Assembly (NCBI GenBank): GCA_964397395.1
Contig: CAYNIN010000001.1
Coordinates: 1,353 to 65,352 of the forward strand
Length of the DNA stretch: 64,000 nucleotides
From: an uncultured Faecalibacterium sp.
GTDB lineage: Bacteria; Bacillota; Clostridia; Oscillospirales; Acutalibacteraceae
Direction: 5' to 3'
The position numbers were made by a program, and so were the translations under genes. Positions 8,652 through 64,000 of this stretch are shown piece by piece. Within the stretch, counting starts at the first letter, position 1. Each line of letters begins with the position of its first letter. The notes under the pieces are model-generated. The model was not told the DNA's origin and made no database searches. It was given only the letters and a program-made list of their open reading frames with translations.

Positions 8652-9938
8652 TTATTTAATCTGTACTCCGCCGTAGGGTCTTATCGAAAGAACATAGCAT
8701 GAGTCATCTCCGAAGATTGACTTCATAGCGTCGGTATAGGTATCAATCATTTCGTTTGGTACAAATGCCTGAATGGTACCTGCAAAACCGCCGCCGTGAA
8801 CTCTCCAGGCACCCTTGCCGCCGAGAATCTGCTGACTTACTGCAAGAGCAAGGGAAAGGGGCTGGTTTTTGGGAGCCTTACAGGTGTATACGTTCTGATT
8901 ATACATATATGAGGAATTACCGCTTGCAATAATCAGTTCCTTGAATTTTTCAAAATCCTTTTCGGCAAGAGCCTGACTCTGTGCAATAACCTTTTCGTTT
9001 TCGCCGAAGAAATGAAGTGCTCTTATAACGGCTCTTTCACCTTTCTGCTTTGCAATTTCGCCTGCGTTTTTAATCACGTCTTCCTTGGTGCATTCACGCA
9101 GAACTTTTTTACCGAAAAATTCTGCAACGCTTTCCATTTCACTTCTTACTGCCGCATATTCGTCAGTAAGGTCTGAATGACTGCCCTTTGTGTCAACAAT
9201 ACAAAGAGAGTGACCCGACTTTGAAAAATCAAAGTCAATCTTTTTGATGACGGGTTTATTTGTATCTTCAAAGTCGATGGAAACAAATCCGCCCACGGAA
9301 CAAGCAGTCTGGTCAAGAAGACCGCAGGGTTTATCAAAGTAAACATTTTCACTGTACTGCGAAATCTTTGCAATTTCAACGGGGTCAACCTTGCCGTCAT
9401 TATAAAGGTGGTTGAGCATTGTGCATACAAGCACTTCAAAGGCGGCGGAAGATGAAAGACCTGAGCCTGAAAGCACCTGGGAAGCCGTTGTTGCATCAAA
9501 ACCGCCGACGTTATAGCCGAGTTCCTTGAATCTTGCAACAATACCTCTTACAATTGACTGGCTCTTGCCCTTTTCGCAGTCTTTGACCTGAAGGTCATCA
9601 CAACAAACCTTATCAAGAGGATAGCCTGCCGACTTGATTCGTACAATACCCTCGTCATTTTTGGAAGCCACCGCAATAGCGTCAAGGCTGATACCTGCAG
9701 CAAGAACAAGACCGTGATTGTGGTCGGTGTGATTGCCGCCGATTTCACTTCTGCCGGGAGCAGAGAAAAGACCTACTTCACGTTGACCTTCTTTGTCGAA
9801 AAGTTCACGGAAGGCATCAAGAACCCGAAGATATCTTTCATACTGCTTTGCATAATTTTCCTTTTCATAAACCACAGAAAAACATTCGTCGAGTTGCTTC
9901 TCTTTCAGGAGTTTTTCCATTTCATTTGTTTTAATCAT
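8652..9938 (-). CDS. galK: Galactokinase
   Basis: GRSEIGGNHTDHNHG (galactokinase signature) and GSGLSSSAAFEV (GHMP ATP motif). I chose the ATG at 9938; the track start is a TTG. Confidence 0.9.
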   Translation of the reverse strand: MIKTNEMEKLLKEKQLDECFSVVYEKENYAKQYERYLRVLDAFRELFDKEGQREVGLFSAPGRSEIGGNHTDHNHGLVLAAGISLDAIAVASKNDEGIVRIKSAGYPLDKVCCDDLQVKDCEKGKSQSIVRGIVARFKELGYNVGGFDATTASQVLSGSGLSSSAAFEVLVCTMLNHLYNDGKVDPVEIAKISQYSENVYFDKPCGLLDQTACSVGGFVSIDFEDTNKPVIKKIDFDFSKSGHSLCIVDTKGSHSDLTDEYAAVRSEMESVAEFFGKKVLRECTKEDVIKNAGEIAKQKGERAVIRALHFFGENEKVIAQSQALAEKDFEKFKELIIASGNSSYMYNQNVYTCKAPKNQPLSLALAVSQQILGGKGAWRVHGGGFAGTIQAFVPNEMIDTYTDAMKSIFGDDSCYVLSIRPYGGVQIK

Positions 9939-34284: not shown

Positions 34285-34740
34285 ATGAGTACACAACAGA
34301 AAGATTATCTTAAAAAAGGCATTTTATATTCCCTTACGGCAATTATCCTCTTTTGCAGCGGTTACATAATCGGCGCCCTCACAAATTCCGTTACGGCTAC
34401 AATTGACAAACCCATTGCCGTTGCCGCAACCGCCGAGGTCACAACTACCACATCAACCCCCGAAACAACAACTTCCACAACGGTTGCACCCACCACAACG
34501 GCTCCGACAACAACCGAGCCCACAACAGAAACCGCAACTACCACAACAGAGCCCACGACCGAGTCCGCAACACAGGGCGAAAATCAGGGTGCAGAAGAAA
34601 GAGTGTTCAACTGCTTCCTTATCGAAATGAAGGTTAATGCCCTTGAAGCTATCCGTGACCTTCTCAACATCGATTTTGTAACAACTGTTATTGATACAAT
34701 CGTTTCATTCTGTATGACCGTTGACTCACTTTTCGCATAA
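34285..34740 (+). CDS. Membrane-anchored protein with a Thr/Pro-rich linker and a C-terminal amphipathic module
   Basis: 151 aa. TM helix (ILYSLTAIILFCSGYIIGAL), a TTTSTPETTTSTTVAPTTTAPTTTEPTTE linker, and the C-terminus ALEAIRDLLNIDFVTTVIDTIVSF, which resembles the small-peptide family at 58-61 kb. I chose the ATG at 34285. Confidence 0.6.
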   Translation: MSTQQKDYLKKGILYSLTAIILFCSGYIIGALTNSVTATIDKPIAVAATAEVTTTTSTPETTTSTTVAPTTTAPTTTEPTTETATTTTEPTTESATQGENQGAEERVFNCFLIEMKVNALEAIRDLLNIDFVTTVIDTIVSFCMTVDSLFA

Positions 34741-57665: not shown

Positions 57666-57839
57666 ATTTACCTCTTACCGAATCCGTTTTCGCAGACGGA
57701 TTTCTAACTTTAAACATACACTGTAATTTTACATTATCCTAAAGAAAATTACAACCATTAAAAGTAAATATTATTATTTTTTCTTGACTGCCCACCCCAA
57801 AAGCAGTACAATAGGAAAAAACTCAAAGGAATGATATAT

Positions 57840-58313
57840 ATGGCAATTGAAAAAGTCAGGGACTATTTCAGTCAGTTCGGTATGGAAAACAGAATAATGG
57901 AATTTGACGTTTCTTCTGCAACCGTTGAACTTGCGGCAAAGGCTCTCGGCACCCAGGGAAAGAGAATTGCAAAAACTCTTTCATTTCACCTTGACAGCGG
58001 TGCAATTCTCATTGTTGCCGCAGGTGACGGCAGAGTTGACAACAAAAAATTCAAAGCAACTTTCTCACAGAAAGCAAAAATGCTCTCTTTTGACGAAGTT
58101 GAACAAATGACAGGCCATGCCGTCGGCGGTGTTTGTCCTTTCGGAATAAATGAGGGTGTCAGGGTTTATCTTGACGAAGGGCTCAAACGTTTCGATACGG
58201 TTTTTCCTGCCTGCGGAAGCAGTAACAGCGCAATTGAACTGACCGTTGAGGAACTTGAAAAATACTCAAAGGCAGACGGCTGGGTTGACGTGTGCAAAAC
58301 ACCCGAAGAATGA
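57840..58313 (+). CDS. YbaK/EbsC-family aminoacyl-tRNA deacylase domain protein
   Basis: 157 aa. TGHAVGGVCPFG motif. I chose the ATG at 57840, 9 nt after AAAGGA. Confidence 0.75.
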   Translation: MAIEKVRDYFSQFGMENRIMEFDVSSATVELAAKALGTQGKRIAKTLSFHLDSGAILIVAAGDGRVDNKKFKATFSQKAKMLSFDEVEQMTGHAVGGVCPFGINEGVRVYLDEGLKRFDTVFPACGSSNSAIELTVEELEKYSKADGWVDVCKTPEE

Positions 58314-58320
58314 TTCATAC

Positions 58321-58353
58321 AAAAAAGCGAGGCACACTTTATCAGTGTGCCTC
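58321..58353 (-). terminator. Terminator after small ORF P1 (probably also serves the ybaK-like gene)
   Basis: Stem gaggcacact / agtgtgcctc with a 5-nt loop. The minus strand continues gctttttt. Confidence 0.7.
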
Positions 58354-58375
58354 ATGTTTCGCTTTAAAGGGTTAA

Positions 58376-58504
58376 TTATTCGCCTTCAGTTTCAGTTTCT
58401 TCTGTGTCGATTGTGGGCATCTTGCTTGTGTCAACACCGAAAAGTTCAAGAATGCTCTTGATGAATGCTAAAAACTGAGCAATAACTGATTCAAGCATTT
58501 TCAT
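58376..58504 (-). CDS. Small acidic amphipathic peptide P1 (42 aa)
   Basis: My translation: MKMLESVIAQFLAFIKSILELFGVDTSKMPTIDTEETETEGE*. GGAGG lies 8 nt before the ATG. It has its own promoter and terminator and is a paralog of P2-P11. Confidence 0.75.
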   Translation of the reverse strand: MKMLESVIAQFLAFIKSILELFGVDTSKMPTIDTEETETEGE

Positions 58505-58535
58505 ATTAAAATCCTCCGTTCATATTTGTATTTAT

Positions 58536-58564
58536 ATATTAACCGATAATATATAATTTGTCAA
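58536..58564 (-). promoter_or_regulatory. Sigma-A-type promoter of P1
   Basis: TTGACA, 17 nt, TAATAT. Confidence 0.6.
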
Positions 58565-58571
58565 TATATCA

Positions 58572-58612
58572 CCGTAATAAAAACTGTCCTGCCGACTTAC
58601 CGACAGGACAGT
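58572..58612 (-). terminator. Terminator after P2
   Basis: Stem actgtcctg..caggacagt (9 bp plus 2 inner bp), followed by ttttatt on the minus strand. Confidence 0.7.
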
Positions 58613-58623
58613 TTCGTTTTTAA

Positions 58624-58758
58624 TTATTCTTCTGTTGCTGTGTACTCGTCAAGTTTTCCCTGAAGAGTTGCTGCTGCATCGGTTAAGCCGAGTGCTTCAA
58701 GAATTGTTACGAATGCTGCAAGGAATGCGAAAATTACGTTTTTTACTTCTGCGGGCAT
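58624..58758 (-). CDS. Small acidic amphipathic peptide P2 (44 aa)
   Basis: MPAEVKNVIFAFLAAFVTILEALGLTDAAATLQGKLDEYTATEE*. GGAGG lies 8 nt before the ATG. Confidence 0.75.
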   Translation of the reverse strand: MPAEVKNVIFAFLAAFVTILEALGLTDAAATLQGKLDEYTATEE

Positions 58759-58793
58759 GGTATTAGCCTCCTTTATTTATTTTTTGCAATTTT

Positions 58794-58823
58794 ATTATAT
58801 AATATTTTTATGCTGTTTGTCAA
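58794..58823 (-). promoter_or_regulatory. Sigma-A-type promoter of P2
   Basis: TTGACA, 18 nt, TATAAT. Confidence 0.6.
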
Positions 58824-58854
58824 GAGTTTTTTAAACAAACTGTGAATTTTATTT

Positions 58855-58891
58855 TAAACAAAAAAGAAGAAGCCTACCGTAAAGGCAGGCT
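58855..58891 (-). terminator. Terminator after P3
   Basis: Minus strand: aagcctgcc-tttac-ggtaggctt (with one G-U pair), followed by cttctttttt. Confidence 0.7.
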
Positions 58892-58906
58892 TGTTGCTGA
58901 ATAAAA

Positions 58907-59056
58907 ATTATTCTTCTGCTGCGATTTCTTCTCTGATTTTATCTTTAGCATTTGATAACATTTCCTTAACAAAATCGGGAGTTGCAAGACCGAGAGCGTT
59001 TAAGAGAGCTTCGACTGCTGCTGCAATGCTTTCAATAACATTAATGATAGTTGCCA
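58907..59056 (-). CDS. Small acidic amphipathic peptide P3 (49 aa)
   Basis: MATIINVIESIAAAVEALLNALGLATPDFVKEMLSNAKDKIREEIAAEE*. GGAGG lies 9 nt before the ATG. Confidence 0.75.
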
Positions 59057-59114
59057 TAATGAGTAACCTCCAAAAAAATTTGATTTAATCTGTTTGTTTT
59101 TCAGATTACGGATA

Positions 59115-59143
59115 CATTCTACAACAAATAATTCGATTTGTCA
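59115..59143 (-). promoter_or_regulatory. Sigma-A-type promoter of P3
   Basis: TTGACA, 17 nt, TAGAAT. The leader is about 50 nt. Confidence 0.6.
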
Positions 59144-59210
59144 ATAATATGTTAACATTTTTATTGTTTTTAATAAAATTATCTCACACTTTTCTTTCGA
59201 GAACCTTGTA

Positions 59211-59249
59211 CAATAAAAATTCGGCACACCTCAAAAGAAGTGTGCCGAA
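59211..59249 (-). terminator. Terminator after P4
   Basis: Stem ttcggcacac / gtgtgccgaa with a 10-nt loop, followed by tttttatt on the minus strand. Confidence 0.7.
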
Positions 59250-59268
59250 AAGCATTTGTGTTTGGATT

Positions 59269-59424
59269 TTAGTTGTTTTTACCGTCGCTGAACTGATCAA
59301 GAAGTTCGTGAGCCTTTTCGGAAAGAGTTGTTGCGAAATCGGCAAGATTAAGTTTGTTAAGGATAACAACGAAAACTTCTATAAGAGCCAATGCGGTGTC
59401 TGCAAAATTTACGGGTAATTCCAT
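59269..59424 (-). CDS. Small acidic amphipathic peptide P4 (51 aa)
   Basis: MELPVNFADTALALIEVFVVILNKLNLADFATTLSEKAHELLDQFSDGKNN*. GGAGG lies 9 nt before the ATG. Confidence 0.7.
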   Translation of the reverse strand: MELPVNFADTALALIEVFVVILNKLNLADFATTLSEKAHELLDQFSDGKNN

Positions 59425-59455
59425 AGTTATATTCCTCCTCAAATTCTATGGTTTT

Positions 59456-59484
59456 AGTCTACATTATAAATGTTCATTTGTCAA
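59456..59484 (-). promoter_or_regulatory. Sigma-A-type promoter of P4
   Basis: TTGACA, 17 nt, TAGACT. Confidence 0.55.
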
Positions 59485-59538
59485 GAGAAAATTCACAATT
59501 TATTTAATTTTAACTATTTATTTATATTACTGCAAACT

Positions 59539-59571
59539 AAAAAAGAAAAAACCTGCCCCTAAGGACAGGTT
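59539..59571 (-). terminator. Terminator after P5 (end of the P6-P5 unit)
   Basis: Minus strand: aacctgtcc-ttag-gggcaggtt (one G-U pair), followed by ttttttcttttt. Confidence 0.7.
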
Positions 59572-59607
59572 TAATTTAAACTGTTAACAACTTAAATTAT
59601 ATGGGAA

Positions 59608-59754
59608 TTATTCACCAATAGCTTCTTTAACCCATTCGCCATTGAGTTTTTCTTCAAATCTTTCAAGAACACCGGCATCAACGCCAAGCTTTGCAAGAAT
59701 TGTTGTGAAAACAGCAACAAGAGTTTCAATTAACTTTGCAATATTTTCAGGCAT
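59608..59754 (-). CDS. Small acidic amphipathic peptide P5 (48 aa)
   Basis: MPENIAKLIETLVAVFTTILAKLGVDAGVLERFEEKLNGEWVKEAIGE*. GGAGG lies 8 nt before the ATG. It is 47 nt downstream of P6 with no intervening terminator. Confidence 0.75.
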   Translation of the reverse strand: MPENIAKLIETLVAVFTTILAKLGVDAGVLERFEEKLNGEWVKEAIGE

Positions 59755-59801
59755 GTTTATATCCTCCATATTAGATTTTGTTTTTTAGAAAAAATTCAGG
59801 A

Positions 59802-59960
59802 TTATTCACCTTTAATGATGTATTCCCAGTCGTTTGCGAAATCTTCAGCCTTTTTACCTGCTTCTTCAAGTTCAGCATCTGTTGTGAAACCGATAGCTAC
59901 GAGAACCTGACCAAAGAAAGCAGCAATTTTTGCTACGAGATCCTTAAGAAAATCAGCCAT
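59802..59960 (-). CDS. Small acidic amphipathic peptide P6 (52 aa)
   Basis: MADFLKDLVAKIAAFFGQVLVAIGFTTDAELEEAGKKAEDFANDWEYIIKGE*. GGAGG lies 9 nt before the ATG. Confidence 0.75.
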   Translation of the reverse strand: MADFLKDLVAKIAAFFGQVLVAIGFTTDAELEEAGKKAEDFANDWEYIIKGE

Positions 59961-60013
59961 TATACTTTTCCTCCTTTATATAGTTAATCTGAGTTTCCTC
60001 TGATTACTCTCTT

Positions 60014-60042
60014 ATTTTATACCCAAACTATAAACTTGTCAA
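60014..60042 (-). promoter_or_regulatory. Sigma-A-type promoter of the P6-P5 unit
   Basis: TTGACA, 17 nt, TAAAAT. The leader is about 46 nt. Confidence 0.6.
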
Positions 60043-60098
60043 TAGTTTTTTAACAATTGTTTATCATCTGTTTTTTTAATCTTTTTTCTTTTAAATTT

Positions 60099-60130
60099 TA
60101 AAAAGAAAAACCTGCCTGAAGGGCAGGTTT
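60099..60130 (-). terminator. Terminator after P7
   Basis: Stem aaacctgcc / ggcaggttt with a 5-nt loop, followed by a U-run on the minus strand. Confidence 0.7.
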
Positions 60131-60141
60131 AAACTTTGTGA

Positions 60142-60279
60142 TTATGCTACGGTTCCCTCGGTTGAATCTTCTTCCGTTTCTAAACTTGCCAACCAATCTG
60201 TGATAAATGAAGGAACATCTTCACCGATAAGTGACATAAGTTTTACGATAAATTCAGCAATAATTTTAATAAAAGCCAT
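60142..60279 (-). CDS. Small acidic amphipathic peptide P7 (45 aa)
   Basis: MAFIKIIAEFIVKLMSLIGEDVPSFITDWLASLETEEDSTEGTVA*. GGAGG lies 8 nt before the ATG. Confidence 0.75.
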   Translation of the reverse strand: MAFIKIIAEFIVKLMSLIGEDVPSFITDWLASLETEEDSTEGTVA

Positions 60280-60336
60280 TTCATTTTCCTCCTGAAAAAT
60301 TATTTATCTGATTTATAAATCAAATTTATTGTTTTT

Positions 60337-60365
60337 ATTTTACATCATAAATTTGTAAAAGTCAA
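60337..60365 (-). promoter_or_regulatory. Sigma-A-type promoter of P7
   Basis: TTGACT, 17 nt, TAAAAT. The end of the leader (aaataatttttcaggaggaaaa) is nearly identical to that of P8. Confidence 0.6.
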
Positions 60366-60401
60366 CAAAATATAATAAACCAATTGTTAACATTAAGAAG
60401 C

Positions 60402-60436
60402 AAAAAAAGAAAACCTACTCTTTCGGGTAGGGTTTC
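60402..60436 (-). terminator. Terminator after P8
   Basis: Stem aacctactc / gggtagggtt (bulged, with a G-U pair) and loop tttc, flanked by an A/T run. Confidence 0.6.
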
Positions 60437-60466
60437 GGATTATACTATAATTTTTTTGCACTGAAA

Positions 60467-60613
60467 TTATTCAGCGTTTTCTGAGTCTAAATCAAAAATA
60501 CTTCCAAAGATTCTCTTAAGGCTTGCCTCAAGTTCTTCCGTATCACCTTGAATACCGAAAACAGAAAGAATGACCTTAACAAGTTTCATTGCATATTCGA
60601 GAATGGCTTCCAT
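60467..60613 (-). CDS. Small acidic amphipathic peptide P8 (48 aa)
   Basis: MEAILEYAMKLVKVILSVFGIQGDTEELEASLKRIFGSIFDLDSENAE*. GGAGG lies 8 nt before the ATG. Confidence 0.75.
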   Translation of the reverse strand: MEAILEYAMKLVKVILSVFGIQGDTEELEASLKRIFGSIFDLDSENAE

Positions 60614-60669
60614 TATGTTTTCCTCCTGAAAAAATTATTTGTCTGACAAACAATCAAACCTACGTTCAT

Positions 60670-60698
60670 ATTTTACAGTATTTTGTCTTAAAAGTCAA
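60670..60698 (-). promoter_or_regulatory. Sigma-A-type promoter of P8
   Basis: TTGACT, 17 nt, TAAAAT. Confidence 0.6.
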
Positions 60699-60730
60699 TA
60701 ATATATAACAAATCATTTTTAAAATACAGC

Positions 60731-60762
60731 AAAAGAAAAAACCCACCCGAAAGGGCAGGTTT
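60731..60762 (-). terminator. Terminator after P9 (end of the P10-P9 unit)
   Basis: Minus-strand RNA: aaccugccc-uuuc-ggguggguu, followed by uuuuucuuuu. Two G-U pairs mean the stem forms only in the minus-strand transcript. Confidence 0.7.
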
Positions 60763-60767
60763 TTAAT

Positions 60768-60786
60768 TATACTATACTATACTATA
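60768..60786. repeat. Pentanucleotide microsatellite (tatac) x 3.8 in the P9 3' UTR
   Basis: tatactatactatactata. A single tatactata occupies the equivalent position after P8 (about 60441). Confidence 0.7.
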
Positions 60787-60803
60787 ATTATTTTGTAACG
60801 AAA

Positions 60804-60965
60804 TTATTCGCCTACAGTTTCGTCAGCAGCATCATCATTGCCCATGATAACGTTCATGATCTTTGTGATGAGACCAACGATTGCTTCTACGAGAGCGCTA
60901 AGTTCTGCGTTTTCGGGAGCAACAGCTTTGATTTCAGCAATTACTTTTGCGATAGCTTCTTTCAT
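60804..60965 (-). CDS. Small acidic amphipathic peptide P9 (53 aa)
   Basis: MKEAIAKVIAEIKAVAPENAELSALVEAIVGLITKIMNVIMGNDDAADETVGE*. GGAGG lies 8 nt before the ATG. It is 37 nt downstream of P10. Confidence 0.7.
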   Translation of the reverse strand: MKEAIAKVIAEIKAVAPENAELSALVEAIVGLITKIMNVIMGNDDAADETVGE

Positions 60966-61002
60966 TGTTAAATCCTCCTTGTAAAATTTTAAGTTAAGTC
61001 AA

Positions 61003-61146
61003 TTATGCGTTGAGATCTTCGAGACCAGCGAGTTCTTTTTCAATTGCTTCCCATTCGCCAAGGTCAACAAGAAGAGCCTTAACTGCGTTTACGATTGAAA
61101 CGATGAGAGCTTCGAACTTTGTGATAAAATCTGTAATAGCCTGCAT
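61003..61146 (-). CDS. Small acidic amphipathic peptide P10 (47 aa)
   Basis: MQAITDFITKFEALIVSIVNAVKALLVDLGEWEAIEKELAGLEDLNA*. GGAGG lies 9 nt before the ATG. Confidence 0.7.
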   Translation of the reverse strand: MQAITDFITKFEALIVSIVNAVKALLVDLGEWEAIEKELAGLEDLNA

Positions 61147-61200
61147 TATACGCTACCTCCTTATAAGATTAAGTTAGGGTTATCCCCTATCTTTAGTCTT

Positions 61201-61229
61201 ATAATACACCTTAATTCACAATTTGTCAA
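61201..61229 (-). promoter_or_regulatory. Sigma-A-type promoter of the P10-P9 unit
   Basis: TTGACA, 17 nt, TATTAT. The leader is about 48 nt. Confidence 0.6.
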
Positions 61230-61330
61230 TATATTACTCAAAATTTTAATAAAATTATTTTATTAAGATTTCTTAAGGTAAATTTGCACCTCCATTTGAA
61301 GAACCGTGGGCGGTATAACTCTTTATCGTA

Positions 61331-61365
61331 CCAATGAAAAGCACCCCGTTTTTTTCGGAGTGCTT
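61331..61365 (-). terminator. Putative terminator after P11
   Basis: Stem aagcactccg / cggggtgctt with loop a7. The U tract is weak (ttcatt). Confidence 0.5.
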
Positions 61366-61372
61366 CATAATT

Positions 61373-61477
61373 TTATTCTGTTTCTTCGGAACCCAAAACT
61401 TTGTCAAGACCAATCTTACTGAGAAGATTGATAAGAGCCACTATAATTTCGTCAATCCATGCTTTAAACTGTGCCAT
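61373..61477 (-). CDS. Small acidic amphipathic peptide P11 (34 aa)
   Basis: MAQFKAWIDEIIVALINLLSKIGLDKVLGSEETE*. GGAGG lies 7 nt before the ATG. It is 28 nt downstream of the Cys-rich protein gene and is probably co-transcribed with it. Confidence 0.7.
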   Translation of the reverse strand: MAQFKAWIDEIIVALINLLSKIGLDKVLGSEETE

Positions 61478-61505
61478 TTTCTTTCCTCCTTAAATTACCG
61501 TTAAC

Positions 61506-61988
61506 TTATGCGCCCATAATTTCGTCGAATCTGAGGAATTCGAAGATTGTGTTAAAGAAGTTATCAAACCATTCTCTTAAAGTTTTAAGAACACGCTGGA
61601 ATGTGGTGACAATCTGTTCCTGCTGATCCTCACTGAAAATGGGCTTGCTGTCGTTTTCTGAGCCGTCGGAATTTACGGGACAGCATGTGCAGTTACATGT
61701 GCAGGGATAAATACCGTTACATTCGACACAGCAAGTCTGAAGGTCATAATATGTTTTGCCGTCTTCACCTACAAAAACAGTCTTTTCAACGCAAGCTGTT
61801 CTGTATGAAAGATCAAGGTTATCGCACCAGATGCAACAATGGCATTTTTCACCTGATTCTGCAGGATAGTGGTCTTCTGTACATTCGCATTTATTTGCAG
61901 CAATGGCTTCGTCTGCAGCAAAAGTTGCAGGAACAAAGAGAGTTGCAAGCATTAAAACTGCAAGTAAAACTGATAAAAACTTTTTCAT
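61506..61988 (-). CDS. Secreted cysteine-rich protein with a C-terminal amphipathic helix
   Basis: 160 aa. Signal peptide (..PATFA/ADEA). 15 Cys fall within ~75 residues (CEC..CHCCIWC..C..CCVEC..CTCNCTCC). The C-terminus is IVTTFQRVLKTLREWFDNFFNTIFEFLRFDEIMGA. GGAGG RBS. Confidence 0.75.
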   Translation of the reverse strand: MKKFLSVLLAVLMLATLFVPATFAADEAIAANKCECTEDHYPAESGEKCHCCIWCDNLDLSYRTACVEKTVFVGEDGKTYYDLQTCCVECNGIYPCTCNCTCCPVNSDGSENDSKPIFSEDQQEQIVTTFQRVLKTLREWFDNFFNTIFEFLRFDEIMGA

Positions 61989-62041
61989 AATTGTCTCCTC
62001 CGGATTATTTTACGGCTACATTGTAAACCGTTCACAGATAT

Positions 62042-62070
62042 ATTATAATTCATAACCCTTTAAAAGTCAA
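62042..62070 (-). promoter_or_regulatory. Sigma-A-type promoter of the Cys-rich protein/P11 unit
   Basis: TTGACT, 17 nt, TATAAT. Confidence 0.6.
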
Positions 62071-62079
62071 CCGAATTCG

Positions 62080-62111
62080 CAAAAAAATAAATGCCCACCG
62101 AAGTGAGCATT
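62080..62111 (-). terminator. Terminator after the 131-aa secreted protein gene
   Basis: Minus strand: aatgctcac-ttcg-gtgggcatt (one G-U pair), followed by tattttttt. Confidence 0.7.
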
Positions 62112-62122
62112 CTTCTTTGCAA

Positions 62123-62518
62123 TTAAGCAGCAACGGGACTAACGTCTTCTTCTGCGGGAGCAGTTGTTGTAACTTCTTCCTCAGTTTCGGTGCTTCCCGA
62201 GTTCATGGCACCTGCGATAAGTTCTTCAATCTGACTGATGATATCATCTTTGTCAATTACACCGAAAATCATGGCAAGTTTCACATAAACTTTAACAAGT
62301 TTAAGAGCAATCTTTGCAAACTTGAGAGCAGGACCAACCGTCCAGAAAGGAAGGTCGAGAATCCACTGAAGCGTATCATCGGTTTCGGCTTCGGAAGCAT
62401 CACCTTCAACTTCTCCTGTTGTTGTTTCGGCGTCATCTGTTACATCTTCAGCAAAAGCAACGGTTGTAACTGAGAACATCATTAAAAGTGCAAGAAAAAG
62501 TGAAATAATTTTTTTCAT
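62123..62518 (-). CDS. Secreted acidic protein carrying an internal copy of the amphipathic helix-G-h-D module
   Basis: 131 aa. Signal peptide (..TVAFA/EDV), an acidic stretch, LKFAKIALKLVKVYVKLAMIFGVIDKDDIISQIEELIAG, and an acidic Thr/Glu tail. AAGGAGG RBS. Confidence 0.75.
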   Translation of the reverse strand: MKKIISLFLALLMMFSVTTVAFAEDVTDDAETTTGEVEGDASEAETDDTLQWILDLPFWTVGPALKFAKIALKLVKVYVKLAMIFGVIDKDDIISQIEELIAGAMNSGSTETEEEVTTTAPAEEDVSPVAA

Positions 62519-62550
62519 TGGAAATTCCTCCTTGAATTTTATTTGACTTT

Positions 62551-62579
62551 ATTATACCTTTTATTAACTGAATTGTCAA
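62551..62579 (-). promoter_or_regulatory. Consensus sigma-A promoter of the 131-aa protein gene
   Basis: TTGACA, 17 nt, TATAAT. The -35 box overlaps the stop codon of the XRE gene. Confidence 0.6.
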
Positions 62580-62950
62580 CAGTTTTCTTGTTTATTAAGA
62601 CTGTTAATAAACTCAAGGGCTTTCTCTTTATCTTCTTTGTTCAGGACTCTGAAATACATAAGAAGATACCTTTCTTCTTTCGGAAGATTTGCTATCGGGT
62701 CAATTTCCACAGAAGAAAGAGCGTCGACTTTTTCTCTTCTCAGTTCGGGATTGTTTTCTTCATAACCGCAAAGATAACCGAGAGATACGTTATATATATC
62801 GCACAGTTTTTTCATAGATTCAAGAGAAGGTCTTGTTTTACCGATTTCATAAAATGTGTAGGCACTTCTGTCGATACCGAGAACATCAGCGATGTTCTGC
62901 TGAGTAAAATGATGACTCTTTCTTAAATTTCTGAGGTTTTCATCAAGCAT
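62576..62950 (-). CDS. XRE-family HTH transcriptional regulator
   Basis: 124 aa. LRNLRKSHHFTQQNIADVLGIDRSAYTFYEIGKTRPSLESMKKL is a Cro/C1 HTH, followed by a ~55-aa C-terminal extension. It is the first gene of the peptide locus on the same strand. Confidence 0.8.
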   Translation of the reverse strand: MLDENLRNLRKSHHFTQQNIADVLGIDRSAYTFYEIGKTRPSLESMKKLCDIYNVSLGYLCGYEENNPELRREKVDALSSVEIDPIANLPKEERYLLMYFRVLNKEDKEKALEFINSLNKQENC

Positions 62951-63058
62951 AGTTTCACTCCTTTTGTGTTTCTTACTTTATCTGAATGTATAATAACACA
63001 AAATGTGACATTTTTCAACATTATTTAAAAAGTTTTATTTAATTTTTTTCATCTTCCG

Positions 63059-64000
63059 TCAGTGCTCTTTGTGAAAATATGCGTATATTTTTTCACCGTC
63101 GGTTTTGCTGATACCCTTAACGGAAGAAAGGGTATCGGCATCGGCGTTTTTAATTGCGGTAAGAGTTCTGAAATGTTCCAGAAGCAGCAGTGCTTTCTTT
63201 TCACCGATACCGTCAATTTTTGTAAGAGTCATGGAAAGAGCCGATTTTCCGTGCTTTTGTTTGTGGTAGGTTATTGCATAGCGGTGCACTTCCTCCTGAA
63301 TTGCAGAAACGAGAGTAAAAACACGTCTGCCCGAATTTATGGCAATTTCCTGACCGCCCGAAGTTATGGCTCGGGTGCGGTGCTTCGAGTCCTTGACCAT
63401 ACCGAAAACGGCTATATCAAGACCGAAAGCCTCGACAACGGGTTTAACGGCATTGACCTGCCCCTGACCGCCGTCAAGCAAAATCAGATCGGGGAGTCTG
63501 CCGAAGCCCTCGTCACTCTTTTCACTTTCGGTGTATCGGTTAAGTCGGCGGCTGATAACTTCTCTCATTGAGCCGTAATCGTCCTGACCCGAAAAGCCTT
63601 TTATGGCAAATCGGCGGTATGCACTTCTCAAAGGTTGTCCGTTTCTGAAAACTACCATACCTGCCACATTGTCACTGCCTGCGGTATGGGATATATCGTA
63701 AGACTCGATGTATTCGGGCGTTTTTTTAAGACCGAGCACCTTGGCAAGTTCATCAAGCACCGCCGTTTCGCCTGCCTGTCTGCCCAGATATTCGTCAAGT
63801 TTCTGTGCCGCATTGTTAAGACACATCTCCGTCACCCTTACTTTTTCTCCCCTTTGAGGATTTAAAAGGGTAACCTTTCTGCCTTTCTTCTCTGTGAGCC
63901 ACTGAGCCACAAGTTCGCTGTCCGTAACCTCACCGTCGGTGACTATAAGGGACGGCACGGCTCTGTCGAGGGAATAGTAGGAGGTTATAAGTTCCTGGCG
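63059..64000 (-). CDS. uvrC: Excinuclease ABC subunit C, C-terminal part (5' end outside the window)
   Basis: The frame is open to base 64000. It has the UvrC endonuclease-V-like region (PDLILLDGGQGQV) and the C-terminal (HhH)2 (IDGIGEKKALLLLEHF). Confidence 0.88.
   Translation of the reverse strand, partial: RQELITSYYSLDRAVPSLIVTDGEVTDSELVAQWLTEKKGRKVTLLNPQRGEKVRVTEMCLNNAAQKLDEYLGRQAGETAVLDELAKVLGLKKTPEYIESYDISHTAGSDNVAGMVVFRNGQPLRSAYRRFAIKGFSGQDDYGSMREVISRRLNRYTESEKSDEGFGRLPDLILLDGGQGQVNAVKPVVEAFGLDIAVFGMVKDSKHRTRAITSGGQEIAINSGRRVFTLVSAIQEEVHRYAITYHKQKHGKSALSMTLTKIDGIGEKKALLLLEHFRTLTAIKNADADTLSSVKGISKTDGEKIYAYFHKEH

Follow-up and report, generated by a model that had tools for sequence, protein, structure and literature searches.

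The window analyzed here is a stretch of 64,000 nucleotides (nt) from an uncultured Faecalibacterium sp. of the Acutalibacteraceae (assembly GCA_964397395.1, contig CAYNIN010000001.1, positions 1,353 to 65,352), and it carries on its minus strand a compact array of short genes located between uvrC (63059 onwards) and a convergent ybaK-like editing gene (57831–58313, plus strand), with pcrA beyond. Thirteen co-directional genes, encoding two Sec-exported proteins and eleven paralogous leaderless peptides, are arranged in ten short units, each opening with a near-consensus promoter and closing with a predicted intrinsic terminator. Judged from the sequence and its conservation in relatives, this cassette architecture is likely to be functional as described below. 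On the minus strand the genes follow one another in the order XRE regulator, 131-amino acid (aa) protein, 160-aa Cys-rich protein, and peptides P11 to P1. The flanks contain uvrC, genes for spmA/B-like Gate proteins, ybaK, pcrA and a GH28 enzyme. By the relatives of its PcrA, the organism belongs with uncultured Acutalibacteraceae/Oscillospiraceae from ruminant guts; the closest PcrA match has 87% identity, and no identical genome occurs among the species representatives. The locus recurs essentially unchanged in 23 Logan metagenome contigs, in which gene callers report all of the small open reading frames (ORFs). Across 58000–63000 the G+C content is 30–38%, compared with 43–46% in the flanks, mainly because 1.8 kb of intergenic DNA has a G+C content of 27.6%.

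The XRE-family helix-turn-helix regulator (62576–62950, 124 aa; Pfam HTH_3, E = 2e-14) lies at the head of the array, and its stop codon overlaps the –35 box of the first promoter. The 131-aa exported protein (62123–62518) consists of a signal peptide, an acidic Thr/Glu linker and a conserved Lys-rich amphipathic helix (AKIALKLVKVYVK). This helix (AKIALK.VKVY.K), preceded by LDLP.WT, is the most conserved part of the protein in the window and in two related loci (L009, 8078–8425; L094, 5450–5842). The 160-aa exported Cys-rich protein (61506–61988) has a signal peptide, 13 invariant Cys residues and an invariant C-terminal aromatic amphipathic helix (FD..F..IFEFL). The peptide genes follow, all on the same strand: P11 (61373–61477, 34 aa), which has its own Shine–Dalgarno (SD) sequence 28 nt past the Cys-rich gene, P10 (61003–61146, 47 aa), P9 (60804–60965, 53 aa, with a 17-aa N-terminal extension), P8 (60467–60613, 48 aa), P7 (60142–60279, 45 aa), P6 (59802–59960, 52 aa), P5 (59608–59754, 48 aa), P4 (59269–59424, 51 aa), P3 (58908–59057, 49 aa), P2 (58624–58758, 44 aa) and P1 (58376–58504, 42 aa). 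The start of P5 at 59754 lies after an SD, and an upstream ATG at 59769 falls within that SD. The gap between P11 and P10 (61147–61372, 226 nt) is the longest intergenic stretch in the array and contains no convincing ORF; thus, it may be a decayed unit.

A promoter scan identifies ten minus-strand sites that score 10–12 of 12 against TTGACA/TATAAT, nine with a spacer of 17 nt and one with a spacer of 18 nt. An earlier note, made from the sequence alone, had proposed ten such promoters here, and all of them are found. With the –35 box starting at the higher coordinate in each case, promoter 1 (62551–62579, TTGACA-17-TATAAT, 12 of 12) lies upstream of the 131-aa gene with a predicted leader of about 26 nt, and promoter 2 (62042–62070, TTGACT-17-TATAAT), which precedes the Cys-rich gene and P11, has a counterpart ahead of the Cys-rich gene in all species examined. 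Further downstream are promoter 3 for P10–P9 (61201–61229, TTGACA-17-TATTAT), promoter 4 for P8 (60670–60698, TTGACT-17-TAAAAT), promoter 5 for P7 (60337–60365, TTGACT-17-TAAAAT), promoter 6 for P6–P5 (60014–60042, TTGACA-17-TAAAAT), promoter 7 for P4 (59456–59484, TTGACA-17-TAGACT), which has the weakest –10 box, promoter 8 for P3 (59116–59144, TTGACA-17-TAGAAT), promoter 9 for P2 (58794–58823, TTGACA-18-TATAAT) and promoter 10 for P1 (58536–58564, TTGACA-17-TAATAT). Of two sites that had been described as perfect TTGACA-17-TATAAT, the one at 62579 is indeed so, whereas the one at 58823 combines perfect hexamers with the 18-nt spacer. Each promoter is separated by a predicted leader of 25–52 nt from an SD (consensus AGGAGG) and an ATG.

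Because the region is AT-rich, the sites could instead be chance matches, with one or a few operons transcribed from the XRE or 131-aa promoter; a loose scan indeed returns many weak matches on both strands, and the start sites are predicted from sequence. The strict pattern TTGAC[AT]-N17/18-TAnnnT, however, occurs 15 times on both strands of the window, and 10 of the 15 matches fall on the minus strand of 58564–62579. Shuffles that preserve dinucleotide composition average 0.17 matches for the region as a whole and 0.07 for the 1.8 kb of DNA between its genes, with a maximum of three in 2000 shuffles, so AT-richness does not explain the ten sites. Within the array, the plus strand has no strict-pattern promoter, and its weak matches are not repeated from unit to unit; on the nearby plus strand there is a single weak strict-pattern match, which belongs to ybaK.

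Comparison with orthologous arrays from other metagenomes, here called sp2 (joined contigs L091 and L089) and sp3 (L092/L093), also argues against chance. When the orthologous P6, P4, P3 and P1 promoters of sp2 and sp3 (L092) are aligned by anchoring at the –35 boxes, the –35 box is identical in 42 of 42 positions and the –10 box in 34 of 42. By comparison, the 17-nt spacer is identical in 64 of 119 positions (54%) and the 10 nt downstream in 36 of 70. The –35 box has thus remained invariant while its flanks diverged. In addition, the sites keep a fixed position relative to the SD and alternate strictly with terminators, and the same design recurs in 15 other species. We therefore regard chance matches read from one or a few operons as extremely improbable. 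By their boxes, their spacers of 17 ± 1 nt, their enrichment and their conservation, the ten predicted sites have the features of housekeeping sigma-A/sigma-70 promoters.

The terminators delimit the same units. Ten hairpins followed by T-runs, with predicted folding free energies of –8.3 to –23.6 kcal/mol, are located 2–35 nt past the stop codons of the 131-aa gene (62079–62120), P11 (61338–61366, –15.9 kcal/mol), P9 (60729–60772), P8 (60409–60436), P7 (60102–60137), P5 (59549–59572), P4 (59221–59248, –21.2 kcal/mol), P3 (58870–58892), P2 (58580–58615, –23.6 kcal/mol) and P1 (58319–58362), all on the minus strand; the last of them closes the array and is convergent with ybaK. No comparable hairpin is found after the XRE gene, the Cys-rich gene, P10 or P6, where the next gene begins after 28–57 nt. 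Each proposed unit thus has its hairpin where its genes end, and no hairpin separates the two genes of a pair. The ten units that had been drawn from the sequence are recovered in full, as promoters and terminators give an identical partition, and both are far beyond chance and conserved in orthologous and distant loci. The terminators after P3, P5, P7, P8 and P9 belong to one repeat family.

Most of the hairpins are also strand-specific. Eight of the ten contain one to three G–U pairs and are more stable by 3.8–9.8 kcal/mol as minus-sense RNA; the terminator of the 131-aa unit, with three G–U pairs, has –19.3 kcal/mol in the minus sense versus –9.5 in the plus sense, and that after P9 likewise has three. 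The earlier proposal that the hairpins are built with G–U pairs for minus-strand transcription holds for these eight but not for the P7 terminator, which has no G–U pair, or for the P8 terminator, which also has none and is slightly more stable in the plus sense, although its U-tract occurs in the minus sense only. Strong terminator calls in the region are confined to the minus strand, and the U-tract rule is passed by eight of ten hairpins in the minus sense and by none in the plus sense. An automated strand comparison that included the flanks was discarded, as it was confounded by flank pairing.

The orthologous arrays provide a further view of these control elements. In sp2, P2 and P1 are only 33 nt apart, without a terminator or a P1 promoter (L089, 345–378, versus 58505–58623 in the window), whereas the more distant sp3 has both the P2 terminator and the P1 promoter. 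This arrangement, an apparent clean loss of one terminator–promoter cassette in sp2, indicates that cassettes can be lost or gained while leaving the ORFs untouched.

With transcription start sites set 7 nt past the –10 boxes (predicted at 62544, 62035, 61194, 60663, 60330, 60007, 59449, 59109, 58787 and 58529), the leaders fall into two classes, as had been suggested before: 25–29 nt for the 131-aa gene, P4, P2 and P1, and 47–52 nt for the Cys-rich gene, P10, P8, P7, P6 and P3. P2, previously left unclassified, joins the short class. The suggestion that the longer leaders could carry structure is also borne out, since all six are predicted to form a 5′-terminal hairpin. Each long leader corresponds to a short leader plus this hairpin, the first paired base being nt 2–6 of the transcript in all six. 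The hairpins are located at 62012–62031 (Cys-rich leader, nt 5–24 of the predicted transcript), 61171–61193 (P10), 60641–60659 (P8), 60306–60325 (P7), 59985–60006 (P6) and 59086–59108 (P3) on the minus strand; they are short, at 5–9 bp, and the first 30 nt of the leaders fold with –2.4 to –9.1 kcal/mol. The SD is unpaired or weakly paired in the predicted folds.

The hairpins are maintained across relatives while their sequences change. Among 20 long leaders from six lineages, the first 30 nt fold in all 20, and the first paired nucleotide is nt 2 in 13; the pooled z score against mononucleotide shuffles is –13, which does not translate into a strict probability as the sequences are related. 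The stem sequences differ between lineages: the P6 hairpin is kept in two orthologs with an altered stem, and nearly every species has a hairpin at the corresponding position of the Cys-rich leader, built from at least seven distinct stem sequences overall. Established 5′ stem-loop stabilizers of mRNA include the Bacillus subtilis aprE leader (Hambraeus et al. 2002) and Escherichia coli ompA and papA (Emory et al. 1992), both cited in the review PMC3997798. The long leaders resemble these in having a hairpin no more than a few nucleotides from the transcript start, which is predicted here, and a strong ribosome-binding site after it. The known stabilizers sit on highly expressed mRNAs, whereas the role here is only predicted, and the hairpins differ from them in being short and in occurring in six of the ten units. 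By this analogy, there is about an even chance that the hairpins act as mRNA stabilizers of the aprE-leader kind rather than as regulatory switches.

We compared the ten upstream regions for a shared operator of the adjacent XRE regulator, as the earlier note had suggested. A k-mer and repeat search of these regions returns as common words only the –35 (TATTGACAAAT), –10 and SD (AGGAGGAA) elements, and it yields no operator that is either common to the units or specific to individual ones; the proposal that each unit is individually tunable thus gains no backing from them. As –10 quality spans TATAAT to TAGACT and there are two leader classes, graded constitutive output would be a simpler reading than unit-specific tuning. 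An 8-bp palindrome, TGTTAACA, occurs in three copies in the window (59150–59157, 59582–59589 and 60385–60392), all within the locus. Two copies closely precede the –35 boxes of P3 and P7, and the third lies in the 3′ untranslated region (UTR) of P5, where the surrounding sequence TTGTTAACAGTTTAAAT is kept in sp2 and sp3. The palindrome is a possible candidate for an XRE dimer operator, and it would touch only three units.

P7 and P8 had been interpreted as a recently duplicated unit. Their promoters and leaders are 73–76% identical, the highest value among all upstream pairs (others 52–68%), and the entire P9–P8 and P8–P7 intergenic regions are homologous, sharing a 3′-UTR motif (TAATTTC..CAAAA.AATTATAGTATA), terminator, promoter and leader. 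By contrast, the coding DNA of P7 and P8 is only 41% identical. The shared non-coding DNA that was noticed before is therefore real, but a recent duplication of the whole unit is not supported, since the non-coding cassette has been conserved or copied while the peptides diverged. Either an old duplication with kept or homogenized control DNA, or terminator–promoter cassettes that move independently of the ORFs, would account for the pattern. The tatactata motif reported in this connection (TATAGTATA on the coding strand) occurs in the 3′ UTR of P9, ahead of the P8 promoter, and in that of P8, ahead of the P7 promoter, but not in the P7 3′ UTR. A (TATAG)n / TATAGTATAAT motif, which includes –10-like hexamers, is found between the P9 stop codon and terminator (60768–60786), with one copy after P8, and also after a peptide gene in sp3 (L092, about 104–125).

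Searched with a profile of the eleven peptides, 5.8 billion proteins (word-indexed) and 1.84 billion representatives (full HMMER) yield only this locus and its close orthologs. The wider family is visible only because the Cys-rich neighbor has relatives. Using a degenerate pattern for the Cys-rich gene, with one genome per species and counted apart from the window, the orthologous arrays and L094, we identified the gene in 23 species representatives, which are metagenome-assembled genomes (MAGs) of Acutalibacteraceae or unclassified Clostridia from goat, sheep, cattle, roe deer and similar hosts. In all 23, TTGAC[AT]-17-TATAAT lies about 85 nt upstream of the Cys-rich gene. In 15 of the 23, one to six peptides are located downstream in promoter-headed units, with a few second-of-pair genes lacking their own promoter. 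In array loci the same-strand promoter matches cluster within the arrays, and the remainder of that strand has few if any. An independent scan of one locus (L106) reveals seven same-strand promoters at 11–12 of 12 with interleaved same-strand terminators. Similarly, in L094, L095 and L096/L097 the Cys-rich gene is followed by three to six small acidic peptide genes, the units of which open with TTGAC[AT]-17-TATAAT or TAAAAT. The window holds the largest array seen, with eleven peptides and ten promoters. As judged from these sequences, the cassette layout is conserved and is not a quirk of one species.

Two variant arrangements were also observed. The XRE gene is absent from L095/L096-type loci, which still have peptides. 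In these loci (L095, 4936–5772; L096, 3804–4638), genes for a divergent ECF-type sigma factor, a Beta_propel protein and a conserved basic 53-aa protein replace the XRE and 131-aa genes, and the Cys-rich gene is accompanied by three peptide genes, the promoters of which are still of the housekeeping type. In L116, an extra gene for an acidic 49-aa peptide (9220–9369) is located about 2.7 kb past the last array peptide and about 3.7 kb past the Cys-rich gene, with one near-consensus promoter just upstream (9163) and a second just downstream (9406), within region 9163–9435. Peptide copies are thus not confined to the main array.

The eleven peptides align as one family of leaderless proteins of 34–53 aa without a signal peptide, and their net charge ranges from –3 to –7. 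The ratio of nonsynonymous to synonymous substitution rates (dN/dS) is 0.25 versus sp2, at a synonymous rate (dS) of 0.59, and 0.19 versus sp3; by this sequence evidence, the peptide ORFs are real genes under purifying selection on the protein. Each peptide has an N-terminal amphipathic helix of about 20 residues that usually ends in a Gly turn ((F/L/I)-G-hydrophobic-D/E/T in most copies) and is followed by an acidic tail. The helical hydrophobic moment is 0.44–0.54 in ten of the eleven peptides and 0.35 in P2, most of them exceeding residue shuffles (p ≤ 0.02), and the N-terminal segments reach maximum Kyte–Doolittle values of 1.6–2.3 over 19 residues. Consistent with this, an AlphaFold2 (AF2) model of P1 built on the family alignment has a helix at residues 2–22, with a predicted local distance difference test (pLDDT) score of 82–90, and a disordered tail. 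Searches of Pfam, NCBIfam, PADLOC and PDB sequences assign no family to the peptides or to the two exported proteins, and a full-text literature search on this kind of peptide array found no description among the papers searched.

Arrays of small RNAs (sRNAs) and of type I toxin–antitoxin modules typically consist of tandem units of 250–330 nt that have a promoter and a terminator apiece, and the hydrophobic N-terminal segments would suit type I toxins. It is thus conceivable that the locus consists of such modules or of dual-function sRNAs, with functional transcripts and secondary ORFs. In layout, the array resembles the Listeria LhrC1-4 sRNAs, which are head-to-tail short units, each with its own promoter and intrinsic terminator and with additive output. 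Unlike LhrC1-4, however, the units here encode proteins under purifying selection and have consensus ribosome-binding sites. Moreover, the consensus SD is not sequestered in predicted folds, no conserved antisense promoter accompanies each unit, and an Rfam scan of 58000–63100 gives no match above the gathering score, with weak matches on terminators. Constitutive consensus promoters on unrepressed membrane toxins would, in addition, be lethal. Protein-level selection, the free SD and the lack of per-unit antisense promoters and Rfam matches make type I toxins or sRNAs very unlikely.

A multi-peptide leaderless bacteriocin of class II presents a closer parallel, in which strong promoters would serve toxin production against competitors. 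The peptides share with aureocin A70 (aurABCD), enterocin L50A/B and garvicin KS the organization as tandem, diversified paralogs of leaderless helical peptides, of 30–50 aa in these Firmicutes systems and 34–53 aa here, and an XRE regulator adjoins the array. Aureocin A70, enterocin L50A/B and garvicin KS are cationic and often Trp-rich, are transcribed as operons and are flanked by transporter or immunity genes. By comparison, all eleven peptides here are anionic and have no basic or Trp-rich face, so that they are not of the cationic, high-isoelectric-point type; they are served by ten separate promoters, whereas known leaderless bacteriocin loci are operons rather than per-gene cassettes; and no exporter, transporter, immunity or accessory gene is located within about 8 kb on either side. 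Searches for Pfam, NCBIfam or PDB sequence matches likewise offered no link. The anionic peptides and the missing transporter and immunity neighbors fit leaderless bacteriocins poorly, and we consider this explanation unlikely.

The relationship between the peptides and the Cys-rich protein points in another direction. We built a hidden Markov model (HMM) of the conserved 34-aa peptide, termed type C (MLEN.E.Y.NG.V.WFKKLFTII.EFL.DIGV..), and used it to search the 7320 ORFs of all loci. Of those exceeding 60 aa, it matches only Cys-rich proteins, 22 in number, each match including the C-terminal helix (E = 2e-4 to 0.9), and the correspondence of the peptide to the Cys-rich helix REWFDNFFNTIFEFLRFDEIMGA is plain by eye. 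For the whole peptide family, hhalign likewise places its best local match on the Cys-rich C-terminal helix, although it is not significant (E = 0.02, probability 2%); against the 131-aa family the match falls on the Lys-rich helix and is also not significant (E = 0.02). The AF2 model of the Cys-rich protein is confident only for the helix at residues 120–159; the Cys domain has a pLDDT of 42–72, too uncertain a model for the fold search, which was set aside. Overall, the peptides look as if the C-terminal amphipathic helix of the Cys-rich protein had been copied into stand-alone products, and this suggests co-assembly at the membrane or cell surface. The positive face of the Lys-rich helix in the 131-aa protein could complement the anionic peptides.

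Two other proteins considered as carriers of the peptide module were not supported by the family HMM, namely the 131-aa protein (E = 0.67) and a 151-aa protein encoded at 34285–34740 (E = 350). The latter has an N-terminal transmembrane segment, a Thr/Pro-rich linker and a hydrophobic C-terminal tail.

Taken together, these data lead us to the following interpretation. Each cassette would comprise, in order, an A/T-rich upstream tract, a near-consensus promoter for the housekeeping sigma factor, a leader with AGGAGG, one or two small ORFs and an intrinsic terminator. In the long-leader units, the 5′ hairpin, the 3′ terminator hairpin and the strong ribosome-binding site would protect the short mRNAs from 5′-end-dependent decay, as in the aprE leader. 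The net effect would be that the peptide family is produced strongly, additively and for the most part constitutively, without polarity along the array, and the amount made would depend on how many cassettes there are and on their quality, not on an operator common to them. The peptides themselves may be surface-active or membrane-associating in the manner of phenol-soluble modulins (PSMs), acting with the Cys-rich protein or assembling on it.

The staphylococcal PSM loci, namely the four-gene psm-alpha operon, the psm-beta operon and the delta-toxin encoded by RNAIII, are single operons under direct AgrA control, and their products are exported by a dedicated ABC transporter (Pmt). The locus here is similar in having tandem leaderless peptide genes, amphipathic alpha-helices and paralog diversification. 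PSMs have 20–45 aa and are very highly expressed, as the units here probably are, judging from their control sequences; the beta type (about 44 aa, net negative) is the closest in size and charge to the peptides here. The two groups have no sequence relationship, with no Pfam or NCBIfam match to PSM or delta-lysin at E ≤ 1. Moreover, nearly every gene here, unlike those of PSM operons, has its own consensus housekeeping promoter and terminator, and the peptides differ from PSMs in their longer acidic tails, in the Cys-rich exported partner that shares their helix and in their host, an anaerobic ruminant-gut commensal. Among leaderless amphipathic peptide loci, the present one is set apart by its per-gene consensus cassettes, its anionic peptides and this helix-sharing partner. 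The suggestion of a PSM-like surface-active function arises because the peptides are anionic and have an amphipathic helix resembling that of the Cys-rich protein; drawn by analogy, it is a real if tentative possibility.

Several observations weigh against this interpretation. Where transcripts start and stop, how stable the mRNAs are and how abundant they become are all predicted from the sequence and from comparison with relatives. The U-tract of the P11 terminator is poor and the XRE gene has no terminator, so some read-through is likely. Taken whole, the window leaders are only modestly more structured than dinucleotide shuffles (z = –0.5 to –1.9). The homology of single peptides to the C-terminal helix is weak by the E values given above (HMM, 2e-4 to 0.9; hhalign, 0.02). 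Membrane-active toxins and bacteriocins are not typically anionic amphipathic peptides, and an exporter is missing from the neighborhood. Finally, 8 of the 23 representatives have no adjacent peptide genes, which indicates that the Cys-rich protein needs no adjacent peptides. Seven of the eight are full loci, among them a close relative (L009/L109), with either the Cys-rich gene alone or a head of XRE, a 113–144-aa protein and the Cys-rich protein; in the eighth (L099), the contig stops about 40 nt past the Cys-rich gene.

The last two of these points, the missing exporter and the representatives without adjacent peptides, would also fit peptides that stay inside the cell as abundant acidic helper or regulatory mini-proteins, such as binders of the inner membrane face, chaperone-like shields or partners of the XRE regulator, with the exported proteins as mere neighbors. 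Indeed, the peptides have no signal peptide, and their disordered acidic tails resemble the cytoplasmic acidic tails of other proteins. Against an intracellular role, no peptide array was found in the searched loci other than immediately after the Cys-rich gene, apart from the one extra copy in L116, and the helix of the peptides resembles the one at the C terminus of the Cys-rich protein, which is exported. Furthermore, the L095/L096-type loci retain peptides in the absence of XRE. On balance, we regard an intracellular role as possible but somewhat doubtful.

Returning to peptides that act with the Cys-rich protein, a broader hypothesis is that the locus represents an undescribed system spread across the Acutalibacteraceae, in which the C-terminal helix of a Sec-exported 13-Cys protein has been copied into leaderless peptides, each in a portable, maximal expression cassette. 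The copy number, from 0 to 11 per genome, would set dose or stoichiometry, and the peptides, the Cys-rich protein and the Lys-rich helix of the 131-aa protein would together form an abundant surface or extracellular structure. In this complete form the hypothesis is rather unlikely to be correct.

If the predictions hold, the locus would be among the densest natural chromosomal arrays of consensus promoters and terminators known, and it would illustrate how the output of a small-peptide family can be scaled by multiplying whole cassettes, with no operon being built. The array would also provide compact, naturally insulated and strong promoter, leader and terminator parts for anaerobic Firmicutes. 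For the biology of the family, the analysis would point to an uncharacterized and probably very abundant group of peptides with a Cys-rich partner in at least 23 ruminant-gut species, to which no described family is linked, and peptidomics and metatranscriptomics of samples from the rumen and hindgut would have a concrete target in this system.

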